64,000 nt of DNA from contig OY729431.1 in assembly GCA_963422395.1 (NCBI GenBank), forward strand, positions 2,080,001-2,144,000. The letters run 5' to 3'. Shown here one piece after another: positions 16,167 to 59,457 of the stretch. The stretch comes from Vicinamibacteria bacterium (GTDB taxonomy: Bacteria; Acidobacteriota; Vicinamibacteria; Marinacidobacterales; Marinacidobacteraceae). The position numbers and the translations under genes are program-made. Below the pieces are notes generated by a model, which did not search any database, was not told the origin of the DNA, and saw only the letters and a list, made by a program, of their open reading frames with translations. How positions within the stretch are numbered: the stretch's first letter is position 1; each line of letters starts with the position of its first letter.

Positions 16167-16237
16167 GAGTCTGCGCCGCAGAAAAAGAACGACCACTATA
16201 TGTAGTAGGTCGATTCGTCGACTTTGCCCACCGGCGG
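16167..16237 (+). mobile_element. MITE family C remnant (IS end plus NrdR-box-like palindrome)
   Basis: GAGTCTGCGCCGCAG is identical to the IS end at 57475. About 50 bp align with 48018-48068. Bounded by CCAG and CTAG. Confidence 0.65.
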
Positions 16238-21997: not shown

Positions 21998-22134
21998 GAA
22001 ACGCTTCGCTCTTCGTTGCGAATCAGTCGGAATACGCCCGGTATGCCTCCCGATTCGCGCCTTGTCCGCCAGGCGCCGCCCCCACCGGGAGAACTGGCCC
22101 GTCTCGGTGCTCGCGCCACTTCATCCACGGACTG
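21998..22134 (-). mobile_element. MITE family A, partial copy
   Basis: Reverse complement matches the left end and hairpin of the 54317 element. Followed by CTAC. Confidence 0.8.
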
Positions 22135-24505: not shown

Positions 24506-24768
24506 GCGGTTCGGGGGCGGGGCGTCAGGATGGCGTCGGGCGTTCTTGGGGGAGGAGGGAGGATGCCCCGCCCCCGAACCGCCCGGCGCTCCGCGCCGCG
24601 AATCGCACTCCTGCCGCTCAGAACCAGTCCCCCAGACTCGATCCGCGGTCAGACCGGATCAGGCGGCAGCGAGTCCGATTCGAAATCACCATTCTGTGAA
24701 CGGGGGTGAACCCCCTTTCACACTTTCCCCCGCTGCGACGCGCCCGAAGCACCGCTTCGGCCGCAACA
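24506..24768 (-). repeat. Structured repeat family B, single copy
   Basis: Reverse-strand homolog of the 50308-51053 unit and co-oriented homolog of 59171-59457. Contains GTGAACGGGGG/CCCCCTTTCAC and CCGAAGC/GCTTCGG hairpins. Fills the convergent mltG/rnhB gap. Confidence 0.8.
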
Positions 24769-24778
24769 TCCTGCCGTT

Positions 24779-30740: not shown

Positions 30741-32645
30741 ATGCACGAGTGGAACTCGAAGGAGGATGAGATCGCCTGGCGTAGCAGCCTGTGGATAAAG
30801 TGGCGCGAGCCCCAAGATCGGGGAGGCGCCCGGCGGACGAGGCGCGATTCGGGAGGCATACCGGGAGTATTCCGACGGAATCGCAACGCCGAGCCAAGCG
30901 TTCAGGCGGGGCCCCCACCGGGAGGACTGGGCATCGCCGACCTTTGGCCGTGTGACTTCGTCCTCAGGCTGCTAGCCTTTGACCCGCGCACCGGGACGCT
31001 GTTCGCCGGGGCGCTGTTCGCCGGATTCGCCCTCATCGCCGAAGGCGCGGCGGACGGACCGCGGTTCGTGGAGGTGACCGAGGCCGCCGGCATCCGTTTC
31101 CTCCACGAAAACGGCGCTTTCGGCGACAAGTACCTGCCGGAGACGATGGGCAGCGGAGTCGCCTTCTTCGACGCCGACGGCGACGGCGACCAGGATCTCC
31201 TCTTCGTGAACAGCCGCCGCTGGCCGGATCGCCGCGAGGGCCCCGCCCCCACCGCCGCGCTCTACCGGAACCGAGGCGACGGCACCTTCGAGGACGCCAC
31301 CGCAGGCTCCGGGCTCGACCTCCCGCTCTACGGCATCGGAGCGGCCATCGCCGACTACGACGGCGACGGCGACCAGGATGTCTATCTGGCGGTGCTCGGG
31401 CCCAACCGGCTGCTCGAGAACGACGGCGGCGGGGCGTTTCGGGAAGCGCCGGCATCGGCATCGGTGGCTCACCCCGGCTTTTCCAGCGGGGCGACCTGGT
31501 TCGACGCCGACGCCGACGGCGATCTGGACCTGTTCGTCCTGAACTATGTCGAGTGGTCCATCGAGGCGGACATCTTCTGCGCCCTCGACGGCGTGCACAA
31601 GAGTTACTGCACCCCGGAGTCCTACGACGGAGCGAGCGCCGCGCTCTACCGGAACGACGGTGCGAACGGCTTCACCGACATCACCGAAGCCGCCGGGCTC
31701 TTCGAGCCGCGCGGCAAGGGTCTCGGGGTGGCGGCGTTCGACTTCGACGACGACGGGCTCCCCGACCTCGCGGTCGCCAACGACACCCAACCCAACTACC
31801 TCTATCGGAACCTCGGAGGCGGGCGGTTCGAGGATGTCGGGGTGCTCGCCGGAATCGCCTTCGCCGAGAACGGAGCTGCGCGCGGAGCGATGGGAATCGA
31901 TGCCTCGGACTACGACGGGGACGGCTGGCCGGACCTCGTGATCGGCAACTTCTCGAACGAGATGGTGTCGCTCTACCACAACGAGGGCGTCGGTTTCTTC
32001 ATCGACCAGGCGCCGGTGTCCGAGATCGGCCGGAACAGCCTGCTCACCCTGGCCTTCGGCGCGTTCTTCTTCGACTACGACCTCGACGGGCGCCAGGATC
32101 TCTTCCTGGCGAACGGCCATGTCGAGAACGAGATCGCCGGAGTCCAGCAGCGGGTCCGCTACCAGCAGCCCCCGCACCTCTTCCGCAACCGGGGCGGCGG
32201 CCGCTTCGTCGAAGTGACCGCGGACTCCCCCGACCTCGCCCGCCCGATGGTCGGCCGGGGTGCAGCCTTCGCGGACATCGACGGCGACGGCGATCTCGAT
32301 CTCGCGGTGAGCGAAAACGGCGGTGCGGCGCGGCTCTTCCGCAACGAGGGCGGAGAACGGAGCGGGTGGGTTGGTTTCCGGCTGCGCGGGCGGAATTCGA
32401 ACCGCGACGGAATCGGTGCGAAGATCACCATCGCCATCGAGGACCGCGGCATGACCCGTACCGAGACCCGTTTCGTGAAGAGCGCCACTGGATACGCATC
32501 CCAGAACCAGCTCGAAGTGGTGGTCGGCCTCGGCCCTGCCGGCCGAGCCGTCTCCGCCGCCGTGATCTGGCCCTCGGGCGCCCGGAGCGAGATCGAGTCC
32601 CCGGAGCCGCGCCGCATCCTGCTCGTCGAGGAGCCCGGACGATGA
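30741..32645 (+). CDS. CRTAC1/ASPIC-UnbV family protein with FG-GAP (VCBS) repeats
   Basis: Repeated DxDGDGDxDL motifs, LYRN.G.G.F, NRDGIGAKI and GYASQN. The 5' end is interrupted by a family A element. Confidence 0.88.
   Translation: MHEWNSKEDEIAWRSSLWIKWREPQDRGGARRTRRDSGGIPGVFRRNRNAEPSVQAGPPPGGLGIADLWPCDFVLRLLAFDPRTGTLFAGALFAGFALIAEGAADGPRFVEVTEAAGIRFLHENGAFGDKYLPETMGSGVAFFDADGDGDQDLLFVNSRRWPDRREGPAPTAALYRNRGDGTFEDATAGSGLDLPLYGIGAAIADYDGDGDQDVYLAVLGPNRLLENDGGGAFREAPASASVAHPGFSSGATWFDADADGDLDLFVLNYVEWSIEADIFCALDGVHKSYCTPESYDGASAALYRNDGANGFTDITEAAGLFEPRGKGLGVAAFDFDDDGLPDLAVANDTQPNYLYRNLGGGRFEDVGVLAGIAFAENGAARGAMGIDASDYDGDGWPDLVIGNFSNEMVSLYHNEGVGFFIDQAPVSEIGRNSLLTLAFGAFFFDYDLDGRQDLFLANGHVENEIAGVQQRVRYQQPPHLFRNRGGGRFVEVTADSPDLARPMVGRGAAFADIDGDGDLDLAVSENGGAARLFRNEGGERSGWVGFRLRGRNSNRDGIGAKITIAIEDRGMTRTETRFVKSATGYASQNQLEVVVGLGPAGRAVSAAVIWPSGARSEIESPEPRRILLVEEPGR
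30785..30971 (+). mobile_element. MITE family A, full copy (187 bp)
   Basis: TIRs CAGCCTGTGGATAAAGT / ACTTCGTCCTCAGGCTG, flanked by GTAG and CTAG. Confidence 0.85.
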
Positions 32646-45084: not shown

Positions 45085-45756
45085 TTGACCGAAGCGCAGG
45101 AAGGGATCGACGATTCGGCGTCGGCAACGGACCGGAAATCGACCCGCGACGCTGTGCCCGAGAGGGATTTCGAGCAAGGCGAACTGGTTTTCTACCCCCA
45201 GATCGGCCATTGCGATGTGGGAGAAGTGATCAGCGACGATCATACGGGCCTCGACCTGCTCGAACTCACTCCGCAGGAATTCGAGGCTGGCAATCGCATC
45301 CTGGTCCCCTTGGGCCATCTGGCGAACCGAGGCATCCGGCGGGCGGGCGATACCCCGGGGATGATCGAAGAGATTCTCGGCTCCGACTTCGAGCCGACCA
45401 TCGAAGACGCCGCCGAGCGGCTGGATCTGATCACCGCGCAGGAGCGGGAAGGGACCGTCGGGAGCCTCGCTCTGGCCCTGAAGCGGCTTCACCTGCGCCA
45501 CGAGATGAAGACCATCAGCCGTGACGAAGAAAAGCGCCGGGCCCGCATCCGCAAGTGGCTGGTGGTGGAATACATGACCGAGAAGCAGGGAACCCCCGGA
45601 CAGGCACAAGCAGCGATCACTCGCCTCCTGGCCCGGACCATGAACGCCGTCCGGGAGCGGGAGCGGGAAGCGGCGCGCGAGCAGCGTCGCAAGGAACGGG
45701 CCGAGCGCAAGGCCGAGGCGGAACGCCGCACCCGCCGCCGGCAAGGCCGGAACTGA
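45085..45756 (+). CDS. CarD-like transcription factor
   Basis: FEQGELVFYPQIG..V and ILVP....GIR resemble the CarD/TRCF RNAP-interacting domain. Helical C-domain and a charged tail. Confidence 0.6.
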   Translation: MTEAQEGIDDSASATDRKSTRDAVPERDFEQGELVFYPQIGHCDVGEVISDDHTGLDLLELTPQEFEAGNRILVPLGHLANRGIRRAGDTPGMIEEILGSDFEPTIEDAAERLDLITAQEREGTVGSLALALKRLHLRHEMKTISRDEEKRRARIRKWLVVEYMTEKQGTPGQAQAAITRLLARTMNAVREREREAAREQRRKERAERKAEAERRTRRRQGRN

Positions 45757-45824
45757 GCAGGCGGCGAAGCGCCGGTCGCCGCGACTGCCGGAAGCCATCG
45801 GCTGCCAGGCCGCCGCGGACAGAA

Positions 45825-47480
45825 ATGTCGAGCCGCTCGCTCTTCGCCCCGCCGCCGACCCCGCCTCTCGCGGCCCCCGAAGCTTCGCCGCCAGCGCCTG
45901 CTCCACAGGCGATTTCCGTTCCAGCGAAGCCGCGGATCGAGCGAAATCCCGTTCTCCGCACCGGCTCGGCCGAATCCCCCTATACGGTGGCCGGACTCAG
46001 TGAGCAGGTGCGGGAGATTCTCCAAGACGGATTCCCGAGGAGCCTGTGGCTCGAAGGGGAAGTGTCCCAGGCCACCGAGCGAAACGGCCACTGGTACCTG
46101 ACTTTCCGCGAAGAGAAGTCCGTTCTCGAAGCCGTCGCCTGGGCGAGTGATGCCCGGCACTTCCGCTTCGAGCCCCGGCAAGGCGACCGGGTGCGGACTC
46201 TCGGCCGGCTGCGCGCCTATGCGGGGAGGAGCCGCTACCAGCTGCAGATCCGACAGCTGGAACGCGCCGGCATCGGCTTGCTGCTGCAAGAGCTCGTCGA
46301 ACGCGAAAAGCGTCTGGAAGCCGAAGGGCTCTTCGACGACGCGCTGAAGCGCAGAGTCCCCTACCTGCCGCTCCGGATCGGCCTGCTGACTTCGGTGGGG
46401 AGCGACGCCTGGGCGGACTTCATGAAGGCCGCCCGCACCCGTTTCCCCGGCGTGCTGATCCGCGAACACGACACCCCGGTCCAGGGAGAGCGGGCACCCG
46501 CAGCGCTGGCCGCCGGGATCCACACCCTCGGTCGGGAACGCCTCGATGTGATCGTCGTCGCGCGCGGCGGCGGATCGGTCGAGGACCTCCTCCCCTTCAG
46601 CGACGAAGCGGTGGTGCGCGCCGCGGCAGCCTGCCCGGTCCCGCTCGTGAGTGCGATCGGCCACGAACAGGATCGCCCCCTGCTCGATCGGGCCGCCGAC
46701 CGCCGCGTCAGCACGCCCTCGGCGGCGGCGAGGGAGCTTCTTCCCGAGCGAAGCGAGCTGCTCCGTGAAATCGCCGAGCACCGGAGAGAATCCGGGTTCT
46801 CGGCTCGTCAGCGGATCACCGCCGCCAGGCAGCGCCGCAATGCGTTTTCGACCCATCGCGTGATGGCGGCGCTCCCCGCCTGGATACTGGGTGAAACTCG
46901 AAACCGCGCCCTCGATCGTACCGGGGCGCAGCACTGCGCTCACGGTGCGCTGCGGCGGCGCGGGGAGCGCCTCGGCCGCATCCTCCTGCGCATCGAGAAG
47001 AACCACCCGCAGCGGTGGCTCGCGGACCAGCGCACCCAGCTCGGCACGATCAGCGGCCGCCTGGCCGGGCTGTCCCCCTGCAGGGGACCGGAAGCGCGTC
47101 TCGCGGCGCTCCGACCCCGGATCGCGGCCGAGCCGCTTCGTCACTCGGTAGGCTCGCTGAGCGCAGCCGTGGAGGCCGACCGGGCCGGCTTCCGCCGCGC
47201 CGCCGCAGGAAGGATCGAGCGCTGCTGTTCGACCGTCCGCGCTTTGCGCGGCCAGCTCGACGCGCTCGATCCGCGCGCGGTGCTGCAGCGCGGTTACAGT
47301 CTCGTGCTCGATTCCGGCGGCCGGGCGGTGCTCTCCCCTGCGCAGGTCTCGATCGGCGACCGTTTGCGCCTGCTGCTCGGCGAGGGAGAGCTGGGCGCCA
47401 CGGTCGAGAGTATCCGCCGCGAGTCCACGACGGATGGAGCCGGGGCCCCGCCCCGCGAACCGGAGGAAGAGCACCCGTGA
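45825..47480 (+). CDS. xseA: Exodeoxyribonuclease VII large subunit
   Basis: WLEGEVS, GHWYLT, LEAEGLFD, VQG, VARGGGSVEDL, SAIGHEQD, TPSAAA and VLQRGYS motifs. Confidence 0.93.
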   Translation: MSSRSLFAPPPTPPLAAPEASPPAPAPQAISVPAKPRIERNPVLRTGSAESPYTVAGLSEQVREILQDGFPRSLWLEGEVSQATERNGHWYLTFREEKSVLEAVAWASDARHFRFEPRQGDRVRTLGRLRAYAGRSRYQLQIRQLERAGIGLLLQELVEREKRLEAEGLFDDALKRRVPYLPLRIGLLTSVGSDAWADFMKAARTRFPGVLIREHDTPVQGERAPAALAAGIHTLGRERLDVIVVARGGGSVEDLLPFSDEAVVRAAAACPVPLVSAIGHEQDRPLLDRAADRRVSTPSAAARELLPERSELLREIAEHRRESGFSARQRITAARQRRNAFSTHRVMAALPAWILGETRNRALDRTGAQHCAHGALRRRGERLGRILLRIEKNHPQRWLADQRTQLGTISGRLAGLSPCRGPEARLAALRPRIAAEPLRHSVGSLSAAVEADRAGFRRAAAGRIERCCSTVRALRGQLDALDPRAVLQRGYSLVLDSGGRAVLSPAQVSIGDRLRLLLGEGELGATVESIRRESTTDGAGAPPREPEEEHP

Positions 47481-48013
47481 ACGAACACTCCGCTGCCCCC
47501 ACGGAAGCCGACCCCAGCACAAACGCCAGCACAAACGCTGGTCGGGAGCAGACCTTCGAGACGATCGAGGCACAGCTCGAAGCGATCACCGAGAAGCTCG
47601 AGGAGCCGACCGTGCCTCTCGAGGAAAGGCTTCGGTTGCACGCCCGGGCCGTCCGGCTGCACGCAACGCTCGAAGGGAAACTCGACGCCGCCGAGAAGGC
47701 GATCCAGGCGGCAGAGAAGGCCGCCGTCCCGGCCGAGCCGGACGGCGAGCCCTATGAGGCGGTTCGCGACCGGCTGGCCGAGATCGTGAACGCACTCGAA
47801 AACGAGGAACTGCCGCTCGACCGGGTCGTTGCGCTCCATCTCCAGGCAGGCCAGCTGGCGGCGCGGTGCGAAACCATTCTGAAGACCGCCCGGACGCAGC
47901 TCGATGCAGTTGCCGAGCCGCCCTCCGACGGCTCCGAGGAGCCGGATCCGGCCCCCGTCCCTCGCGCGGACCCAGGCTCGGCCGAAGAGTGGGACGATCC
48001 ACCGCCCTTCTAA
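47477..48013 (+). CDS. xseB: Exodeoxyribonuclease VII small subunit, two tandem domains
   Basis: GGAGG RBS and GTGA overlap with xseA. Two copies of the F/YE....L..I...LE....PLE/D pattern. Confidence 0.75.
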   Translation: MNEHSAAPTEADPSTNASTNAGREQTFETIEAQLEAITEKLEEPTVPLEERLRLHARAVRLHATLEGKLDAAEKAIQAAEKAAVPAEPDGEPYEAVRDRLAEIVNALENEELPLDRVVALHLQAGQLAARCETILKTARTQLDAVAEPPSDGSEEPDPAPVPRADPGSAEEWDDPPPF

Positions 48014-48122
48014 CAGCCTGCGCCGCAGAAAACGATGACCCCCATACGGAGCAGGTCGATTCGTCGATGACCACTACATATGGTGGTAGATCGTGCTTGG
48101 AATCGTTCGCCGGCACAGGCTG
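48014..48122 (+). mobile_element. MITE family C, full copy (109 bp)
   Basis: TIRs CAGCCTGCGCCG / CGGCACAGGCTG, flanked by CTAA and CCAG. Shares CTGCGCCGCAGAAA and CATATGGTGGTAG with the IS end at 59116-59155 (reverse strand). Confidence 0.75.
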
Positions 48123-49114
48123 CCAGCCCTTGTCCCCGAGCTCGCCAAGGCTCTCCCTCGACACCTTCTTCGACCGCTCCCTCGGAGCCGAGCAGTGACG
48201 AGCCGCCGCGCGAACTCGACCACTTTCTCGCTTCCTGTGCACAGGAGGTGGAGGCCTTTCTCGATGGTGCGCTGCCGCCGGCGAACGGTGTTTTCGGCTC
48301 GTTGGGCCGGGCCATCCGCTACGCGGCGCTCGGCGGCGGCAAGCGGGTTCGGCCGGCGCTCGCCATGGCCTCGGCGCTCGCCGTCGGCGGGCAGAGGAAG
48401 GATGCGCTCGCCGCCGCCGCCGCAGTGGAGATGATCCACACCTATTCGCTGATCCACGACGACCTGCCGTGCATGGACGACGATGACCTCCGCCGTGGAA
48501 AGCCGACCGTTCATATCCGGTTCGGGGAGGCGATCGCGGTTCTCGCCGGGGATGCGCTCCACACCCTGGCTTTCACGGTGCTTTCGGGGAGTGAAGCACC
48601 GGAAGCGGTGCGCCTCGAATCCGTTCGGCGTCTCGCCGAAGCCGCCGGACCCGCCGGGATGGCAGGAGGGCAGGCGCTCGACATGGAAGCCGAGACCCGC
48701 TCTCCCGGCGCCCGCGGACTGGAATCCATCCATCGCGCGAAGACGGGGGCCCTGTTCGGCGCTTCTACCGCGCTCGGCACCCTCGCCGGCGGCGGCGATC
48801 CGGCGCAGGTGGAAACGGCGGCCCGTTTCGGCGTGGAGCTAGGGCTCGTCTTCCAGATCGTGGATGACCTCCTCGACGAAGAGCAGCCGAGCGCGGCGCT
48901 CGGCAAGGCTTCCGGGAAAGATCGGGCCGCCGGAAAGGCGACCTACCCGGCGATCCACGGACGAGCGGCAGCGCGTGCCGAAGCCTGCCGGCGGGCGGCT
49001 GCAGCGGGCCGGATGCTCGCATCATGGAAAGACCGGGCGGCCGATGCGTCGAGCTGCCGCGGGGTGAGACTGCTCGGGCTGCTGGCCGAGCGCGTGGTGG
49101 CTCGAACCACCTGA
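48080..49114 (+). CDS. ispA: Geranyltranstransferase / FPP synthase
   Basis: GGKRVRP, EMIHTYSLIHDDLPCMDDDDLRRG, GQALD, KTGAL and FQIVDDLLD motifs. Start uncertain. Confidence 0.92.
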   Translation: MVVDRAWNRSPAQAASPCPRARQGSPSTPSSTAPSEPSSDEPPRELDHFLASCAQEVEAFLDGALPPANGVFGSLGRAIRYAALGGGKRVRPALAMASALAVGGQRKDALAAAAAVEMIHTYSLIHDDLPCMDDDDLRRGKPTVHIRFGEAIAVLAGDALHTLAFTVLSGSEAPEAVRLESVRRLAEAAGPAGMAGGQALDMEAETRSPGARGLESIHRAKTGALFGASTALGTLAGGGDPAQVETAARFGVELGLVFQIVDDLLDEEQPSAALGKASGKDRAAGKATYPAIHGRAAARAEACRRAAAAGRMLASWKDRAADASSCRGVRLLGLLAERVVARTT

Positions 49115-52260: not shown

Positions 52261-52382
52261 CTGAACCGCTTCGCTCTTCATTGCAAATCCGTCGGAATAC
52301 GCCCGGTATGCCTCCCGATTCGCGCCTTGTCCGCCGGGGGCCTCCCCGATCTCGGGGCTCGCGCCACTTTATCCACAGGCTG
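52261..52382 (-). mobile_element. MITE family A, partial copy
   Basis: Reverse complement of the left about 120 bp of family A. Ends ATCCACAGGCTG followed by CTAG. Confidence 0.82.
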
Positions 52383-54312: not shown

Positions 54313-54835
54313 CTAGCAGCCTGTGGATGAAGTGGCGCGAGCCCCAAGATCGGGGAGGCGCCCGGCTGACAAGGCGCGATTCGGGAGGCATACCGGGTGT
54401 ATTCCGACCGAATCGCAACGCCGAGCCAAGCGTTCAGCCGGGATGCATCGCCGGTCGACGGCCGTGTGACTTCGTCCACAGGCTGCTAACAGCCTGTGGA
54501 TGAAGTGGCGCGAGCCCCAAGATCGGGGAGGCGCCCGGCTGACAAGGCGCGATTCGGGAGGCATACCGGGTGTATTCCGACCGAATCGCAACGCCGAGCC
54601 AAGCGTTCAGCCGGGATGCATCGCCGGTCGACGGCCGTGTGACTTCGTCCACAGGCTGCTAACAGCCTGTGGATGAAGTGGCGCGAGCCCCAAGATCGGG
54701 GAGGCGCCCGGCTGACAAGGCGCGATTCGGGAGGCATACCGGGTGTATTCCGACCGAATCGCAACGCCGAGCGAAGCGTTCAGCCGGGATGCATCGCCGG
54801 TCGACGGCCGTGTGACTTCGTCCACAGGCTGCTAA
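54313..54835 (+). mobile_element. Head-to-tail triple array of MITE family A (3 x 169 bp, 173-bp period)
   Basis: Copies at 54317-54485, 54490-54658 and 54663-54831. 17-bp TIRs CAGCCTGTGGAYGAAGT. Junctions CTAG, CTAA, CTAA, CTAA. Confidence 0.92.
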
Positions 54836-56376
54836 CCCACCACCCGAACCCGCACCCGTCGAGCTCCGCCGGGCAGGTAGGCGAGCGGAAGGTCCTCGCG
54901 CTCGACGGTCTCGAGACTCGACGGATCGGCCCCGGCGGCGACCGCCCGAGACTTCGCTTCACGGGTCGCCGTTTCGAACGCCTCCTGGCGGCTGACTCCG
55001 TGGAACACCCGGTCCACTTCGCCTCCGATTCGGGCGATCGCGGCACCGACGGCATTGGCGACGCCGGCGTGCGGGACCGTGACCGTTTCCGAAATCCCGT
55101 CGAGCTCTGGCGGAACCAGAAACGCGGCTCCTCCAACGGCCACCAGAGGACGCTCGCGGGCGTCGGGTTTCATCCGATCCACCGCCTCGGCGATCCGCCC
55201 TCGAACCGCAGCGGCGAAGCGCCGGACGCTCTCCGCGGGCAACCGGGAGACGCGGCGGGGATCCCCGACCTCGGTCCAACCGGCAGCGACTCCGAAGTCG
55301 GTAGCAGTGGGCGTCTTCCCGCCGAAGACGAGCCCCTGCTCCATCAACCGGAACCCCACACTCTCCGGTCCGATCCGAATTCCGTCCGCTGAAACCAGGC
55401 TCCCGCCGCCGAGTGCGAGCGAGATCAGATCGGGCATCCGGAACAGGGTCCGCACCCCGCCCACTTCCACTTCCCGCGGTGCCTCCCGCGGGAAGCCGCC
55501 GCGCAGGTAGCCCACATCGGTGGTGGTCCCGCCCGCATCCACGACCACCGCATCCGCGGCGCCGGAGAGGAAAGCCGCGCCGGTCATGCTGTTCGTGGGG
55601 CCCGAGGAGAGACTCAGCACCGGGAACTCGCGAGCCGCCGAAGCGCCGGCGATCGTGCCGTCGTTCCTGGAGAGGAACAGCGGTGCGCCCGTGCCCGCCT
55701 TCTCCATCGCTTCGGTGAATCCGGCCGCCGCCCGGCCCGCGAGCGGCCGGAGCGCGGCGTTCAGGAGGCCGGCGTTTTCACGGCCGAGCAGTCCGATTCG
55801 GGAAAGCCGGCGAGACTCGGTGATGGACACCTCCGGGTACTCCTCCCGGAGGATCTCGGCGGCCCGGGCTTCGTGGCTCCCGTCGAGCGGAGAGAACACC
55901 GCGCAAAGCGCGATCTCCCGGATGCCGGCCTTTCGGGTTTCGCGCGCCGCTGCGCGAACCGCAGCCTCGTCGAGCGGGACGATGGGCCTTCCGTCACATT
56001 CATGGCCTCCCTCGACCAGGAAGACCGGCCCGCGGACGCGGCGAGCGAGTCCCGGGGGCCAGTCACAGAACGGAGGGAGGGAGGCGCTCGCCGGAAGCCC
56101 GATCCGAACCGCCGCCACCCGCTCGAGACCCGAACCGGTCAGTACCGCGTTCGTGAAGTGGGTGGTTCCGATCACCACCCGGGCGGCATCGGGTGCCCGG
56201 TCCGCATCTCGGAGAACCCCGCGAAGAGCGGCGGCGATCCCCGCGGTGACATCCTCGGTCGTCCGGGTCTTGACCGCAGCGAGCACTTCGGCTCCGCTCA
56301 TCAGCACGGCATCGGTGTGGGTGCCCCCGACATCCACTCCGACCCGCGGGCGGGGCGGCGGCGAAGCGGTGCTCAC
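54832..56376 (-). CDS. Hydantoinase/oxoprolinase family protein
   Basis: GVDVGGTHTDAV, IGTTHFTNA, SSGPTNSM.GA, DAGGTTTD and ANAVGAA motifs. Confidence 0.9.
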   Translation of the reverse strand: MSTASPPPRPRVGVDVGGTHTDAVLMSGAEVLAAVKTRTTEDVTAGIAAALRGVLRDADRAPDAARVVIGTTHFTNAVLTGSGLERVAAVRIGLPASASLPPFCDWPPGLARRVRGPVFLVEGGHECDGRPIVPLDEAAVRAAARETRKAGIREIALCAVFSPLDGSHEARAAEILREEYPEVSITESRRLSRIGLLGRENAGLLNAALRPLAGRAAAGFTEAMEKAGTGAPLFLSRNDGTIAGASAAREFPVLSLSSGPTNSMTGAAFLSGAADAVVVDAGGTTTDVGYLRGGFPREAPREVEVGGVRTLFRMPDLISLALGGGSLVSADGIRIGPESVGFRLMEQGLVFGGKTPTATDFGVAAGWTEVGDPRRVSRLPAESVRRFAAAVRGRIAEAVDRMKPDARERPLVAVGGAAFLVPPELDGISETVTVPHAGVANAVGAAIARIGGEVDRVFHGVSRQEAFETATREAKSRAVAAGADPSSLETVEREDLPLAYLPGGARRVRVRVVG

Positions 56377-57458: not shown

Positions 57459-57654
57459 CGGCGAGCGATGCTAGGAGTCTGCGCCGCAGGAAGGTTGGGG
57501 CGGATCGGGGGTTCGGGAGCGCGTGGGAGATTCGGGGGTTCGGGAGCGCGTGATCGGAGTCATGGGGCGGGATCGCGCAGTTTTCGGGCGGGAGGGGAGT
57601 TCGGGAAGGCGCTCCGGAGGGCCATTGGGCGCCAGGGCGGGGCGGGGCAGGCGT

Positions 57655-58980
57655 TTACGCTGCCAGCAACCCCGGGAGCCGTCGCAGGTTCAACGCCAGG
57701 CAGACCAGGTCCCACTCTCCTTGCGCCTTGCGCAGCCCCCGGAAGCTGAACCGCCGGAACCCCATCACCTCCTTGATCCACCCGTGGGGCGCCTCGGACA
57801 GCCACTTCCGCGCCGCGTAGATCTTTCGCCCGGCGTGAGCCGCCAGTTTTTCTCTCATCCGGCGGGTCGCCGGGTGATGCTTCGCGGGAGTGCCCGCCGC
57901 CCGCTTCCGCCCTTCCCGTCCGACGGCGACATACCCGTCTATCCCGCGGGTTTCCAGCAGTGCCAGGTCCCGCTCGTTGCAGTATCCGGCATCAGCCAAC
58001 ACCACCGCCGGCACCGCGCCCAACTCTTCTCGCACCCGGTCCAGCAGCGCCGGCAGCTGCCCCTGGTCGCCCGCATTCGCCGTCAGCTGGTTCGACACCA
58101 CCAGCTGGTTCTCTCCGTCCACCGCCATCTGCGCGTTGTAGCACTGCTGGAACCCCTCGGCGCTCGTCTTCATGATCCGGCTCTCGGGGTCGGTGAAGTT
58201 CCCCTGCGCTTCCGCCTTCGGCTCCCCATGCGCGCGCTGGTAGCGCCGACCGTTCCCCGGACTGTGGGTCTGTCCGGGGACCCGCCCCCGCGCCTCGTCC
58301 CGCGCCCGCTGCTCCGCTTCCAGCTGCACCTTCGCCGCCCGGATCGCCGCCAACCGATCCTCCCGGCGCCGCAGCTCAGCCGGCAACTCGTCGCCGCGCC
58401 GCTCCGCCCCGTGGGCTGCGTCCTCCCGCTCGTCGGTCTCTCCCGCCTGCTCCAAATATCCCGCGATCTCCGCCGCAAGCCGCCGCTCCTCGGCCAGCAT
58501 CCGCCCATAACTCATCGCCTTGCGCTTGCTCGCGTTCGCCCGAACCTTCACCCCGTCCAGCGATAGCCTGCCGAAACGCACCAGCCCGCACTGCCGCGCC
58601 ACCCGCACCACCTCGACGAACAACTCCCGGAAATCCCCCAGATGCCGACGACGAAACTCGCAGATCGTCCGGTGCCTCGGGAAGTTCCTCGCCGCCAGCA
58701 TCCGAAACGCCACGTCCTCTTCCAGCTTCCGCGCAATCCCACGCGACGAAAACACCCCCGTCGCATAAGCGTAGATCAGCACCTTCACCATCATCCGCGG
58801 GTCATACGGCGCGTTCCGCCGCCCGTCCCCCGCATACGGCGCGTAGAACGCAGACAAGTCCAGCTCGTCCACCACATCGCTGATGTGATGCGCCAAATGC
58901 CCCTCCGGAACCCACTGCCGCAGATCCGGCGGCAACAAGAGCAGCTGCCCCGGCTGATACTGACGAAAACGCGTGCCCAT
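57655..58980 (-). CDS. IS1182-family DDE transposase
   Basis: PYDPRMMVKVLIYAY..GVFSSR.I, LDGVKVRANAS, TDPESRIM, YNAQ, LADAGY and E..HG.IK..MGFRRF..RG motifs. ORF intact. Confidence 0.92.
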   Translation of the reverse strand: MGTRFRQYQPGQLLLLPPDLRQWVPEGHLAHHISDVVDELDLSAFYAPYAGDGRRNAPYDPRMMVKVLIYAYATGVFSSRGIARKLEEDVAFRMLAARNFPRHRTICEFRRRHLGDFRELFVEVVRVARQCGLVRFGRLSLDGVKVRANASKRKAMSYGRMLAEERRLAAEIAGYLEQAGETDEREDAAHGAERRGDELPAELRRREDRLAAIRAAKVQLEAEQRARDEARGRVPGQTHSPGNGRRYQRAHGEPKAEAQGNFTDPESRIMKTSAEGFQQCYNAQMAVDGENQLVVSNQLTANAGDQGQLPALLDRVREELGAVPAVVLADAGYCNERDLALLETRGIDGYVAVGREGRKRAAGTPAKHHPATRRMREKLAAHAGRKIYAARKWLSEAPHGWIKEVMGFRRFSFRGLRKAQGEWDLVCLALNLRRLPGLLAA

Positions 58981-59026
58981 CGGAACCATCCCTCCCCGGA
59001 TCCGAGACGCCCTCGCCCCTTTTCCG

Positions 59027-59050
59027 TAAGTGTATGATATAAATGAGTTA
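59027..59050. promoter_or_regulatory. AT-rich imperfect palindrome, overlapping IHF-like sites upstream of transposase
   Basis: TAAGTGTATGATATAAATGAGTTA; each strand matches WATCAANNNNTTR with one mismatch. Confidence 0.4.
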
Positions 59051-59159
59051 TATGCCACGCAACCGTGTCGCCCCCCGGTCCCAACTCCCGAGCAGCCCGA
59101 CCGTCCGCTCGTCGCTACCACCATATGGCCCGCCCCGTTTCTGCGGCGCAGACTGCTAG

Positions 59160-59457
59160 CAGCCAGCTGTGCGATTCGGGGGCGGGGCGTAAAGATCGTG
59201 TTGCGTTTCGAACCCTCTATGGGAAGAGCGGGACGCCCCGCCCCCGAATCGCCCGGCGCTCCGCGCCGCGAATCCGAACTGCTGCCGCTCACGCCCCATC
59301 CCCAGATTCAGTGCGCAACCAAGCTGGATCGGGCGGCAGCGAGTCCGATTCGGTGTCACCAATTCGTGAACGGGGGTGAACCCCCTTTCACACTTTCCCA
59401 CGCTGCGACGCTCCCGAAGCTCCGCTTCGGGCGCAACATGTGTTTTTCCGGCCACGG
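59160..59457 (-). repeat. Structured repeat family B, single copy abutting the IS target site
   Basis: Homologous to 24506-24768 and to the reverse complement of the 50308 unit. Begins CAGCC directly after CTAG. Confidence 0.8.

Follow-up and report, generated by a model that had tools for sequence, protein, structure and literature searches.

A gene-less IS1182-derived element between xseB and ispA and its relation to NrdR operators

NrdR, a repressor that senses the levels of the DNA building blocks, is considered to act on ribonucleotide reductase genes exclusively, and it is being discussed as a drug target. Transposon ends can contain sites for host factors; examples are a DnaA box in the outside end of Tn5 and IHF sites in IS10 and IS1.

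NrdR operators contain two boxes of 16 bp, each with the key bases C4, A6, A8, T9, T11 and G13; the boxes are separated by a linker of 15-16 bp (or 26-27 bp), positions 4-13 are at least 63% AT, and NrdR requires both boxes (PMC13584703). For E. coli and P. aeruginosa, a recent genome-wide search is reported to have detected box pairs at reductase operons only (bioRxiv 10.1101/2025.03.28.645925). The Correia elements of Neisseria are prokaryotic miniature elements (MITEs) that carry an IHF-binding site and promoters, as summarized in a review (PMC10969869).

The element analyzed here, MITE-C, lies between xseB and ispA in a window of 64,000 nucleotides from the genome of a Vicinamibacteria bacterium. 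Like the Correia elements it is small and gene-less, has inverted repeats and, at some copies, a target duplication, is dispersed between genes and is derived from or mobilized by an insertion sequence (IS); it also has an internal site, here a predicted one, for a host DNA-binding protein that may affect neighboring genes. It differs from them in that this site resembles a two-box operator for the nucleotide-sensing NrdR instead of a nucleoid-protein site or a promoter, in its parent, which belongs to the IS1182 family, and in its low copy number (five full and four half copies, dispersed over 2.9 Mb of genome). As in Tn5, IS10 and IS1, a site within a mobile element for a host protein connected with replication or DNA architecture could couple movement to the state of the cell, but the site predicted in MITE-C is central and not terminal. 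With the NrdR operators of reductase genes, intact copies of the element share two partially palindromic 16-bp boxes that have the six key bases and an AT-rich core and are set apart by 16 bp (PMC13584703, PMC12051234, bioRxiv 10.1101/2025.03.28.645925), and the flanking bases match the operators of its own lineage; unlike these operators it is part of a mobile element and not located at a reductase gene, and the copy in the window has one competent box only. The IS1182-family elements have the terminal repeat GAGTCTGCGCCGCAG, which is found in the window IS and in relatives from several phyla, and the CTAG target, duplicated at some MITE-C copies, in common with MITE-C, whereas MITE-C has no transposase gene, measures 109 bp compared to about 1.7 kb and differs in its interior from what a simple deletion of the IS would leave.

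Structure, copies and parent of the element

The borders of the copy under study were determined by direct reading of the sequence (Table 1), which agrees with the original prediction of a MITE of 109 bp inserted at the xseB stop codon with CTAA as its flank. The element is non-coding, only read-through frames cross it, and its size (below the limit of about 300 bp), inverted repeats, dispersed copies and IS-matching ends are those of a MITE. The terminal inverted repeats match at 11 of 12 positions, and in young copies they extend over about 17 bp. Four additional full copies were found at genome positions 1409894, 55854, 2369308 and 2214960.

Table 1. Features of the xseB-ispA junction and related elements in the window.
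Feature	Position in window	Strand	Evidence or remark
xseA, upstream of xseB	45555-47480		Pfam PF02601
xseB, exonuclease VII small subunit	47468..48013 (start approximate)	+	Pfam PF02609, 81.7 bits, two Exonuc_VII_S stretches
xseB stop codon TAA	48011-48013	+	Sequence reading
Left flank CTAA, presumed left copy of the CTAG target duplication, contains xseB stop	48010..48013	.	Flank comparison
MITE-C, older-subfamily non-autonomous IS1182-type element	48014..48122	+	About 82% identity to young copies
Left terminal inverted repeat CAGCCTGCGCCG	48014..48025	+	18-mer CAGCCTGCGCCGCAGAAA, the same as in the end of an IS copy (genome position 1786192)
Box 1, CCCCCATACGGAGCAG	48039..48054	.	4/6 key NrdR positions; C replaces T9 and G replaces T11
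Linker, GTCGATTCGTCGATGA, 16 bp	48055..48070	.	Contains small ATCGA/TCGAT hairpin
Box 2, CCACTACATATGGTGG	48071..48086	.	6/6 key NrdR positions; contains ATG 48080 and GTG 48083
ispA (polyprenyl synthase) open frame	48080..49114	+	Pfam PF00348, 185.6 bits
Right terminal inverted repeat CAGCCTGTGCCG (reverse-complemented)	48111..48122	-	Sequence reading
Right flank CCAG, presumably mutated CTAG duplication	48123..48126	.	Flank comparison
Left half-copy of MITE-C, one intact box, no partner	16167..16221	+	Between divergent unknown gene and rsgA
IS1182-family insertion sequence, CTAG-flanked	57475..59155	-	Transposase 57658-58989 (-)

The 4-bp duplication is imperfect at this copy, with CTAA on the left and CCAG on the right. 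Altogether, five of the ten flanks of the full copies are CTAG, and the others are CCAG (three) or CTAA (two). CTAG is present on both sides of the copies at 55854 and 2369308 and at all six flanks of the three full IS copies. We propose that MITE-C inserts at the rare tetranucleotide CTAG and that the copy next to xseB would be an old one. Contigs of four out of four runs (from three studies) carry MITE-C at the xseB-ispA site without an empty insertion site being seen, some of these runs being possibly the source of the assembly. The window contains an additional half-copy near 16.2 kb, the first motif of which had been described as a good palindrome. This applies to its intact box (CCACTATATGTAGTAG, 16193-16208); however, only the left half of the element is present there, and the second box is missing.

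The genome encodes three full copies of the IS, each with an intact transposase. The transposase of the window copy passes the NCBIfam model NF033551 with 369.8 bits (cut-off 270) and contains the Pfam domains DDE_Tnp_1 and DUF772. The 18-mer terminus of MITE-C differs by a single base from the end of the window IS (59138-59155) and is identical to that of the IS copy at genome position 1786192; with up to three mismatches allowed it has four matches in the window compared to 0.14 expected. The sequence CATATGGTGGTAG is present without mismatch in MITE-C (48077-48089, + strand) and in the IS (59115-59127, - strand), with an expectation of 0.14 for up to two mismatches, confirming that the element shares sequence with the subterminal region of the IS. 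Both arms of MITE-C can be aligned by eye to IS subterminal sequence if a 2-bp insertion is allowed. The right terminus also has CAGCCTGTG in common with MITE-A, a separate family of 169-173 bp (e.g., 54313-54836) that uses the same target and contains no NrdR-type box. MITE-C had been thought to link the IS to the MITE families, and this link is found in the CTAG target and in 7-18 terminal bases but does not reach beyond them. MITE-C is a gene-less derivative of the IS1182-family IS of this genome.

Searches for the element outside this genome did not yield further copies: it was not found in 40 relatives, the exact 20-mer of the right arm had no match in public genome contigs or in metagenome contigs, and blastn gave no match to MITE-C in plasmids and phages. 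A 20-base pattern of box plus linker matched twice in metagenomes, both times by chance and inside coding sequence.

The box pair and the reductase operator

The genome contains an nrdR gene (170.1 bits, above the cut-off). The encoded protein has the CxxC...CxxC motif and the residues D15 and R17, the equivalents of which touch C4 and G13 in the NrdR protein of S. coelicolor (PMC13584703). The proteins of S. coelicolor and E. coli also bind to heterologous sites (PMC13584703). The single ribonucleotide reductase gene, nrdJ (genome position 2052156), has its own NrdR-type operator upstream (genome positions 2051327-2051373), consisting of ACACAACATGTTGTGC, a linker of 15 bp and GATCTATATGTTGTGC. 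MITE-C copies are not located in the promoter of the ribonucleotide reductase operon.

The two related motifs noticed at a distance of 32 bp, the first one degenerate, proved to be the mirrored arms of the element; each forms a box of 16 bp, and a linker of equal length separates the two. Box 1 of the window copy has four AT pairs at the eight positions between 4 and 13 (50%), reaches a matrix score of 0.3 and is closer to the IS subterminal sequence than to an NrdR box. Box 2 has six of eight (75%) and a score of 20.7, and only this box has the full set of key bases. Both boxes of the young copies are 87.5% AT at these positions. All six key bases are found in both boxes of the pairs at genome positions 1409918 and 2369333, and five plus six in the pair at 55890; in the older subfamily there is just a single box. 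The linker length is 16 bp in all full copies scoring as pairs (48014-48122, 1409894, 55854 and 2369308). The linker sequence of the window copy recurs unchanged in the young copies 1409894 and 2369308, whereas a few of its bases vary in 55854 and 2214960, the latter of which contains insertions and was left out of the pair scoring.

A scan of the genome (2.9 Mb) detected 280 single boxes with all six key bases. Only three six-plus-six pairs with a linker of 15 or 16 bp were present, the nrdJ operator and the two MITE-C pairs at 1409918 and 2369333, and nine other linker lengths gave no such pair. In 24 relatives of the same family zero or one such pair per genome was found (one in 8 of the 24), and the control pattern read backwards gave none. 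Of 25 sites extracted as loci, 12 are located beside a reductase homologue (63-81% identity). To rank the boxes, a matrix was derived from the reductase operators of 12 relatives (48 symmetrized boxes, own genome excluded); the ranking used only the ten positions outside the box selection, the six key positions being fixed by the choice of training sites. MITE-C boxes occupy ranks 1-8 and 11 of the 280, the latter being box 2 of the window copy, and the true nrdJ box 1 is found at rank 9. The pair scores are 46.9, 46.1 and 38.3 for MITE-C, 29.7 for nrdJ and 21.0 for the window copy. Background pairs score at most 11.8 except for three other candidates, and one of ten control spacings reaches 20.

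Judged by sequence, the young-subfamily MITE-C is a double NrdR operator of canonical type, with a score higher than that of any other in the genome. The predicted pair of NrdR-box-like sites thus holds for the family, which shows all published sequence features and outscores the reductase operator, but not for the copy at xseB with its one box.

The interior of MITE-C is a dyad, its arms being the palindromic boxes of 16 bp with 16 bp between them, and we infer that NrdR, as a tetramer carrying dATP and ATP, binds to intact copies. The reading that we favor as fairly probable is that the window copy is an old IS1182-derived MITE-C, that intact copies of the family are predicted targets of NrdR, that this copy is likely not one, and that ispA likely starts at ATG 48080. 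Since NrdR needs both boxes and one arm of the window copy is an IS-like sequence and not a box, binding to this copy is probably absent or weak.

A more far-reaching version, which we hold to be tentative and rather unlikely, is that the predicted binding of the tetramer with dATP and ATP bends intact copies and gates synapsis of the two ends by the transposase, or the transcription of neighbors such as thrS and msrB, by dNTP status, with the second box having been gained in the young, most amplified subfamily because binding aids spread. Two intact copies precede thrS and msrB, at distances of 225 and 79 bp, respectively. The genes adjoining MITE-C copies are thrS, msrB, those for an ECF sigma factor and an amidohydrolase, and ispA; as a group they show no connection to the supply of DNA precursors. 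A scan for sigma-70-type promoters gave no sites around the window copy and the copy at 2369308.

In the literature no paper that connects MITEs with NrdR boxes was found, none among the matches listed concerns such boxes in mobile elements, judging by the listed entries, and publications on IS1182 and MITEs yielded nothing on the subject. In another genome of the phylum, G291, a repeat present in three copies contains a perfect pair of boxes that is not at the reductase gene, which hints that the situation of a mobile operator may recur.

Alternative explanations of the boxes

The alternative that survives best, unlikely as we consider it, is a coincidental likeness to the NrdR box. The dyad would then be no more than the long inverted repeat with which a foldback MITE pairs, with a role as DNA or RNA secondary structure or no role, and without binding of a host regulator. 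The boxes mirror each other as MITE arms would, a related proto-motif is already present in the IS end, and the neighboring genes show no functional theme. Folding of young copies gives hairpins of considerable length, at -50 and -56 kcal/mol (z-scores of -7.2 and -9.4). Five differences in box 1 between the subfamilies also improve the pairing of the arms, so that selection for the hairpin explains them equally well. All MITE-C copies come from one ancestor, and the box match therefore represents one evolutionary event and not nine; in addition, the dyad doubles any palindromic box, so that chance has to supply just a single box at the right distance from the center. We estimate this chance at about 1e-6 to 1e-5 per element, which is small, but the finding was chosen from a very large scan. 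Coincidence does not readily account for a match that extends to the ten positions not used in the search, for a linker of exactly 16 bp, or for MITE-A, which has the same target and no such box. Mirroring is moreover limited to the terminal repeats, the boxes and the center, whereas the segments between repeat and box differ (8 vs 19 bases).

Improbable to a higher degree is that the element at this site works mainly at the RNA level, as a hairpin in the xseA-xseB-ispA message that attenuates or stabilizes it, the boxes being irrelevant. MITE-C is located within the operon and must be co-transcribed, and other MITEs are known to act in this way (review PMC10969869). However, the mRNA strand of the window copy folds weakly (-42.2 kcal/mol, z -2.7, two of 200 shuffles as good), the strong hairpin being confined to the young copies, and the + strand has neither a terminator-like site nor an Rfam match.

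The boxes had also been proposed to be transposase binding sites, and we regard subterminal sites of the IS1182 transposase that are required for mobilization of the MITE as very improbable. The window IS has a box-like sequence, CCATATGGTGGTAG, at offset 27 of its end on the 5' side of the transposase, which is close to the offset in MITE-C, and the left arm of the window copy aligns to this sequence. The motif is, however, found at this one IS end only. Comparison with ends of related IS1182 elements inspected out of a set of 80 loci (transposases 67-73% identical) showed that the 20-bp terminal repeat is conserved, whereas the subterminal sequence is unrelated and contains no six-of-six box within 75 nt. 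In the ends inspected, which come from many phyla, GAGTCTGCGCCGCAG and CTAG are kept and the subterminal box is not. An AT-rich patch at the place of the box often resembles a -10 promoter element in these related ends.

Least credible is the capture of an operator from a reductase promoter with subsequent mobilization between two IS ends: box 1 and the first linker bases match the nrd operator of a same-family relative (locus L110) by eye at 15 of 16 positions (ATGTAGTAGGT(G/C)GATT), but linker identity is just 9 of 16, both arms align to IS sequence as described above, and the one-box older subfamily fits a stepwise origin inside the element.

Other candidates were tried and rejected. These were a riboswitch or known RNA (nothing near threshold in Rfam), capture from the genome's own nrdJ operator (the linkers are unrelated) and a site for the transposase that the whole IS family would share (the inspected IS1182 ends are without the box).

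The ispA junction and its implications

The two potential start codons of ispA within box 2 (Table 1) are the sole in-frame starts. No further in-frame ATG, GTG or TTG is present between the stop codon at 48068-48070 and the conserved ELDHFL stretch, and there is no Shine-Dalgarno sequence ahead of ATG 48080. In relatives, the ATG or GTG of ispA is located 10-25 nt upstream of the xseB stop codon in seven of eight usable cases; three of 12 ispA loci (L131, L137 and L138) were dropped because they were not in the orientation of the query. Insertion into a CTAG holding the xseB stop codon would split such an ancestral xseB-ispA overlap, in which ispA was read in another frame. The new start of ispA is probably ATG 48080.

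For the window copy, this suggests that an insertion into overlapping genes may be tolerated when the element itself supplies a start codon. If the NrdR reading of the intact copies is true, a consensus-grade box pair in a transposable element would be the first route by which the NrdR regulon could spread to unrelated genes, and MITE-C copies would represent natural decoy sites for NrdR. The system is compact and testable, comprising one protein, two nucleotides and a DNA of 109 bp, and it raises the question whether a mobile element can exploit a metabolic sensor of its host or can be tamed by it.

Structure of MITE-C and its relation to IS1182

The original prediction placed a short element with paired motifs at the xseB stop, and reading the sequence confirmed it. 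This copy of MITE-C, a family of gene-less IS1182-type elements, lies between xseB and ispA, ends in inverted repeats (CAGCCTGCGCCG versus CAGCCTGTGCCG on the opposite strand) and is flanked by CTAA and CCAG. A profile search located MITE-C at nine places in the 2.9-Mb genome (68.4% GC), as five full copies and four half copies whose breakpoint is the dyad centre. Three full and three half copies form a young subfamily, 94-98% alike; the xseB-ispA copy is about 82% identical to it and has a particular left-arm sequence that recurs in the half copy at genome 1307493. No common theme was found among the genes neighbouring the other eight copies (see table).

The two 16-bp boxes of the young copies, CCACTATATGTAGTAG and A/CCACTACATATAGTGG, are mutual reverse complements, each nearly palindromic by itself. 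Mirror symmetry in MITE-C is confined to the terminal repeats, the boxes and the centre; from terminal repeat to box there are 8 bases in the left arm and 19 in the right.

The transposase of the window IS scores 369.8 bits on the NCBIfam IS1182 model (cut-off 270) and also matches Pfam DDE_Tnp_1 and DUF772. This IS is present in the genome as three full copies plus fragments, each flanked by CTAG. The 18-base left end of the xseB-ispA copy is one base off the window IS end and equal to the IS end at genome 1786192; in addition, the 13-mer CATATGGTGGTAG matches exactly in this copy and the IS, and CAGCCTGTG is common to its right end and MITE-A, a separate family of 169-173 bp with terminal repeat CAGCCTGTGGAYGAAGT and CTAG or CTAA flanks. 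The ten flanks of full MITE-C copies read CTAG (five), CCAG (three) or CTAA (two). CTAG is 12-fold under-represented in the genome (669 sites, where base composition predicts about 8,484), which helps explain insertions at TAG stop codons and beside earlier insertions. Two MITE-C copies, those at genome 1409894 and 2369308, directly abut MITE-A-like ends; this suggests that with every insertion the rare CTAG target is created anew and can serve the next one.

Several element flanks carry CCAG in place of CTAG, three of them reading CCAGG, and a homologue of Vsr (very-short-patch repair) was found in the genome (50.5 bits); Vsr-type repair may have caused this conversion. One of two further dispersed repeat families adjoins the IS from 59160 onward.

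Coordinates of elements, boxes and candidate operators; pair scores were calculated with the full matrix at linker 15 or 16
Feature	Position	Description	Pair score
xseB	window 47468-48013	identified by Pfam Exonuc_VII_S; stop TAA at 48011-48013	
MITE-C, xseB-ispA copy	window 48014-48122	full, 109 bp; begins directly after the xseB stop	21.0
Box 1 of this copy	window 48039-48054	CCCCCATACGGAGCAG	
Linker of this copy	between box 1 and box 2	16 bp, GTCGATTCGTCGATGA	
Box 2 of this copy	window 48071-48086	CCACTACATATGGTGG	
MITE-C	genome 2369308 (pair 2369333)	full, six+six boxes; between DUF3014 and msrB, 79 bp from msrB	46.9
MITE-C	genome 1409894 (pair 1409918)	full, six+six boxes; 225 bp upstream of thrS	46.1
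MITE-C	genome 55854 (pair 55890)	full, five+six boxes; between TonB-dependent receptor fragment and amidohydrolase gene	38.3
MITE-C	genome 2214960	full; upstream of ECF sigma factor gene	
MITE-C	window 16167-16221 (genome 2096167)	half; between divergent unknown gene and rsgA	
MITE-C	genome 1918431	half; between convergent gene ends (aminotransferase gene, carB)	
MITE-C	genome 54086	half; between convergent gene ends (cupin gene, amidohydrolase gene)	
MITE-C	genome 1307493	half; between LemA and PBP1 genes	
nrdJ operator		upstream of the reductase gene; ACACAACATGTTGTGC, 15 bp, GATCTATATGTTGTGC	29.7
Candidate pair	L150:3001-3049 (genome 1438905)		27.1
Candidate pair	L151:3001-3049 (genome 866563)		26.3
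Candidate pair	L152:3001-3049 (genome 2713165)		25.6
All remaining sites			<=11.8
Tandem repeat array, ~27 bp	L011:1-500 (genome 2050656-2051150)	upstream of the nrdJ operator	
Window IS	window 57475-59155	transposase passes NCBIfam IS1182 model	
MITE-A triple array	window 54313-54836	three head-to-tail copies sharing CTAA	
MITE-A, other copies	window 30781-30975, 52374, 45030		
Dispersed repeat family	window 24561-24769 and 59231-59439	85-95% identity	
Dispersed repeat family	window 21998-22082 and 52263-52347	85-95% identity	
Repeat with pair in G291	L156:130-300 (contig C324)	also at ends of L153 and L154	

Comparison of the boxes with NrdR operators

The genome encodes NrdR, as had been proposed for checking: TIGR00244 gives 170.1 bits, above the cut-off, and the protein shows the zinc-ribbon cysteines, D15 and R17. 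There is one reductase gene. In the part of the source available, NrdR boxes are described as having six highly conserved positions (C4, A6, A8, T9, T11, G13), at least 63% AT between positions 4 and 13, and a linker of 15-16 bp, with 26-27 also tolerated and its sequence free; binding requires both boxes (PMC13584703). A whole-genome scan found 280 single boxes with all six key bases, and just three six+six pairs at linker 15 or 16, namely the nrdJ operator and the MITE-C copies at 1409918 and 2369333; the copy at 55890 has five and six key bases. No six+six pair occurred at nine other linker lengths (10, 14, 17, 20, 25-28 and 30).

Among 24 same-family relatives (including the unpublished G033) the pattern occurs at most once per genome, in eight of them, and never when read backwards. 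At least one pair was present in 121 of 300 further genomes of the phylum (including the unpublished G089), with a maximum of four per genome. When one site per genome was taken (25 loci), 12 adjoined a reductase homologue at 63-81% identity and one more a 27% relative. The 12 reductase-adjacent sites, two of them near-identical kin, yielded a matrix of 48 symmetrised boxes, own genome excluded. Since the choice of sites fixes its six key columns, the ranking of the 280 boxes used just the remaining ten: MITE-C boxes came out at ranks 1-8 and 11, and the true nrdJ boxes 1 and 2 at ranks 9 and 39. One of ten control spacings gave a pair score reaching 20. A matrix scan of MITE-A detected no NrdR-like box. 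At the sequence level, the proposal that these are NrdR-type boxes is strongly supported for the family, making MITE-C a carrier of candidate NrdR operator sites; for the xseB-ispA copy, full function is not supported.

Selection for pairing may also have shaped the boxes. Box 1 differs between the xseB-ispA and young subfamilies at 5 of 16 positions, the linker being identical; all five differences bring the young box nearer the NrdR consensus and also improve its pairing with the other arm, so that the two pressures are indistinguishable from them. Chance is a further conceivable source of the likeness, because the case was selected out of a very extensive scan. If MITE-C and nrdJ are set aside, a single position in the 2.9-Mb genome attains the score of box 2 of the xseB-ispA copy; as there are two to four positions in a dyad element where such a box would suffice, we roughly estimate chance at 1e-6 to 1e-5 per element. 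The earlier alternative that the boxes are transposase binding sites was not supported: across 80 loci of IS1182 relatives (transposases 67-73% identical, in MAGs labelled as several phyla), the distinct ends compared keep GAGTCTGCGCCGCAG and CTAG, but their subterminal sequence is unrelated and lacks a six-of-six box within 75 nt, and the window IS has a box-like motif at one end only, which argues against a family-wide transposase site.

The MAGs carrying these relatives (L022-L101) are labelled Longimicrobiales, Vicinamibacterales, Alphaproteobacteria, Latescibacterota, Chloroflexota and others. The identical 15-20-bp terminal repeats and CTAG flanks, in some genomes in dozens of copies, point to a recent spread across phyla.

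The nrdJ operator is preceded by the tandem repeat array (CCAGCAGC.CCTCCAGAAGCCG.C), which lies inside an open frame, and is separated from the likely reductase start by a leader of about 290 nt (L011:670-1010). Three further candidate pairs score close to it. Each has one canonical box, and in two of the three the other box is built around an ACCGGT core, e.g. CCACAACCGGTTGTGG; one pair occupies the stretch from which the purine-synthesis genes purH and purB diverge, and another is 278 bp upstream of lptF/G. Genome G291 of the same phylum has three identical-sequence copies of a perfect six+six pair, carried by a repeat of about 120-170 bp that adjoins a 125-bp repeat of at least 40 copies ending CAGCCTGCGAAGCAGG. 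Contigs break at the repeat, and the single reductase gene lies elsewhere with a different operator of its own.

The xseB-ispA copy and the meaning of MITE-C

Box 2 of the xseB-ispA copy has all six key bases and 75% AT and agrees with every NrdR feature listed, whereas box 1 has C at position 9, G at position 11 and 50% AT, with a matrix score of 0.3. Because both boxes are required, according to the portion of PMC13584703 available, we expect little or no NrdR binding at this copy. Box 1 of its subfamily resembles the subterminal sequence of the IS more closely (CCATATGG.G versus CCATACGGAG). The mRNA strand folds weakly (-42.2 kcal/mol, z -2.7), compared with -50 and -56 kcal/mol (z -7.2 and -9.4) in young copies.

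Twelve loci were listed for the ispA junction; three not in query orientation were dropped, leaving eight relatives and this genome. In seven of the eight, ispA is read in a frame other than that of xseB and has an in-frame ATG or GTG 10-25 nt before the xseB stop. Judged from this comparison, insertion of MITE-C evidently cut the xseB-ispA overlap in this genome. From the stop at 48068-70 to the conserved ELDHFL stretch, the ispA frame offers just two ATG, GTG or TTG codons, ATG 48080 and GTG 48083. Both are within box 2, and ispA may start there; no Shine-Dalgarno sequence precedes the proposed start. The ATG corresponds to ATA in young copies, so the substitution that makes the 13-mer shared with the IS also makes a start codon. 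In xseB itself, a single reading frame holds two Exonuc_VII_S stretches, so that the small subunit is tandem-duplicated, with a proline-rich tail after them.

Full-text searches combining NrdR with MITE terms found no report among the texts and listed entries covered. In the part of a 2025 preprint available, NrdR box pairs of E. coli and P. aeruginosa are placed at reductase operons only (bioRxiv 10.1101/2025.03.28.645925). MITE-borne signals named in the available part of PMC10969869 include promoters, an IHF site (Correia) and RNase sites. MITE-C resembles such MITEs with host factor sites, its own candidate factor being NrdR, and we file it as a MITE bearing a host factor site for which NrdR is the predicted factor.
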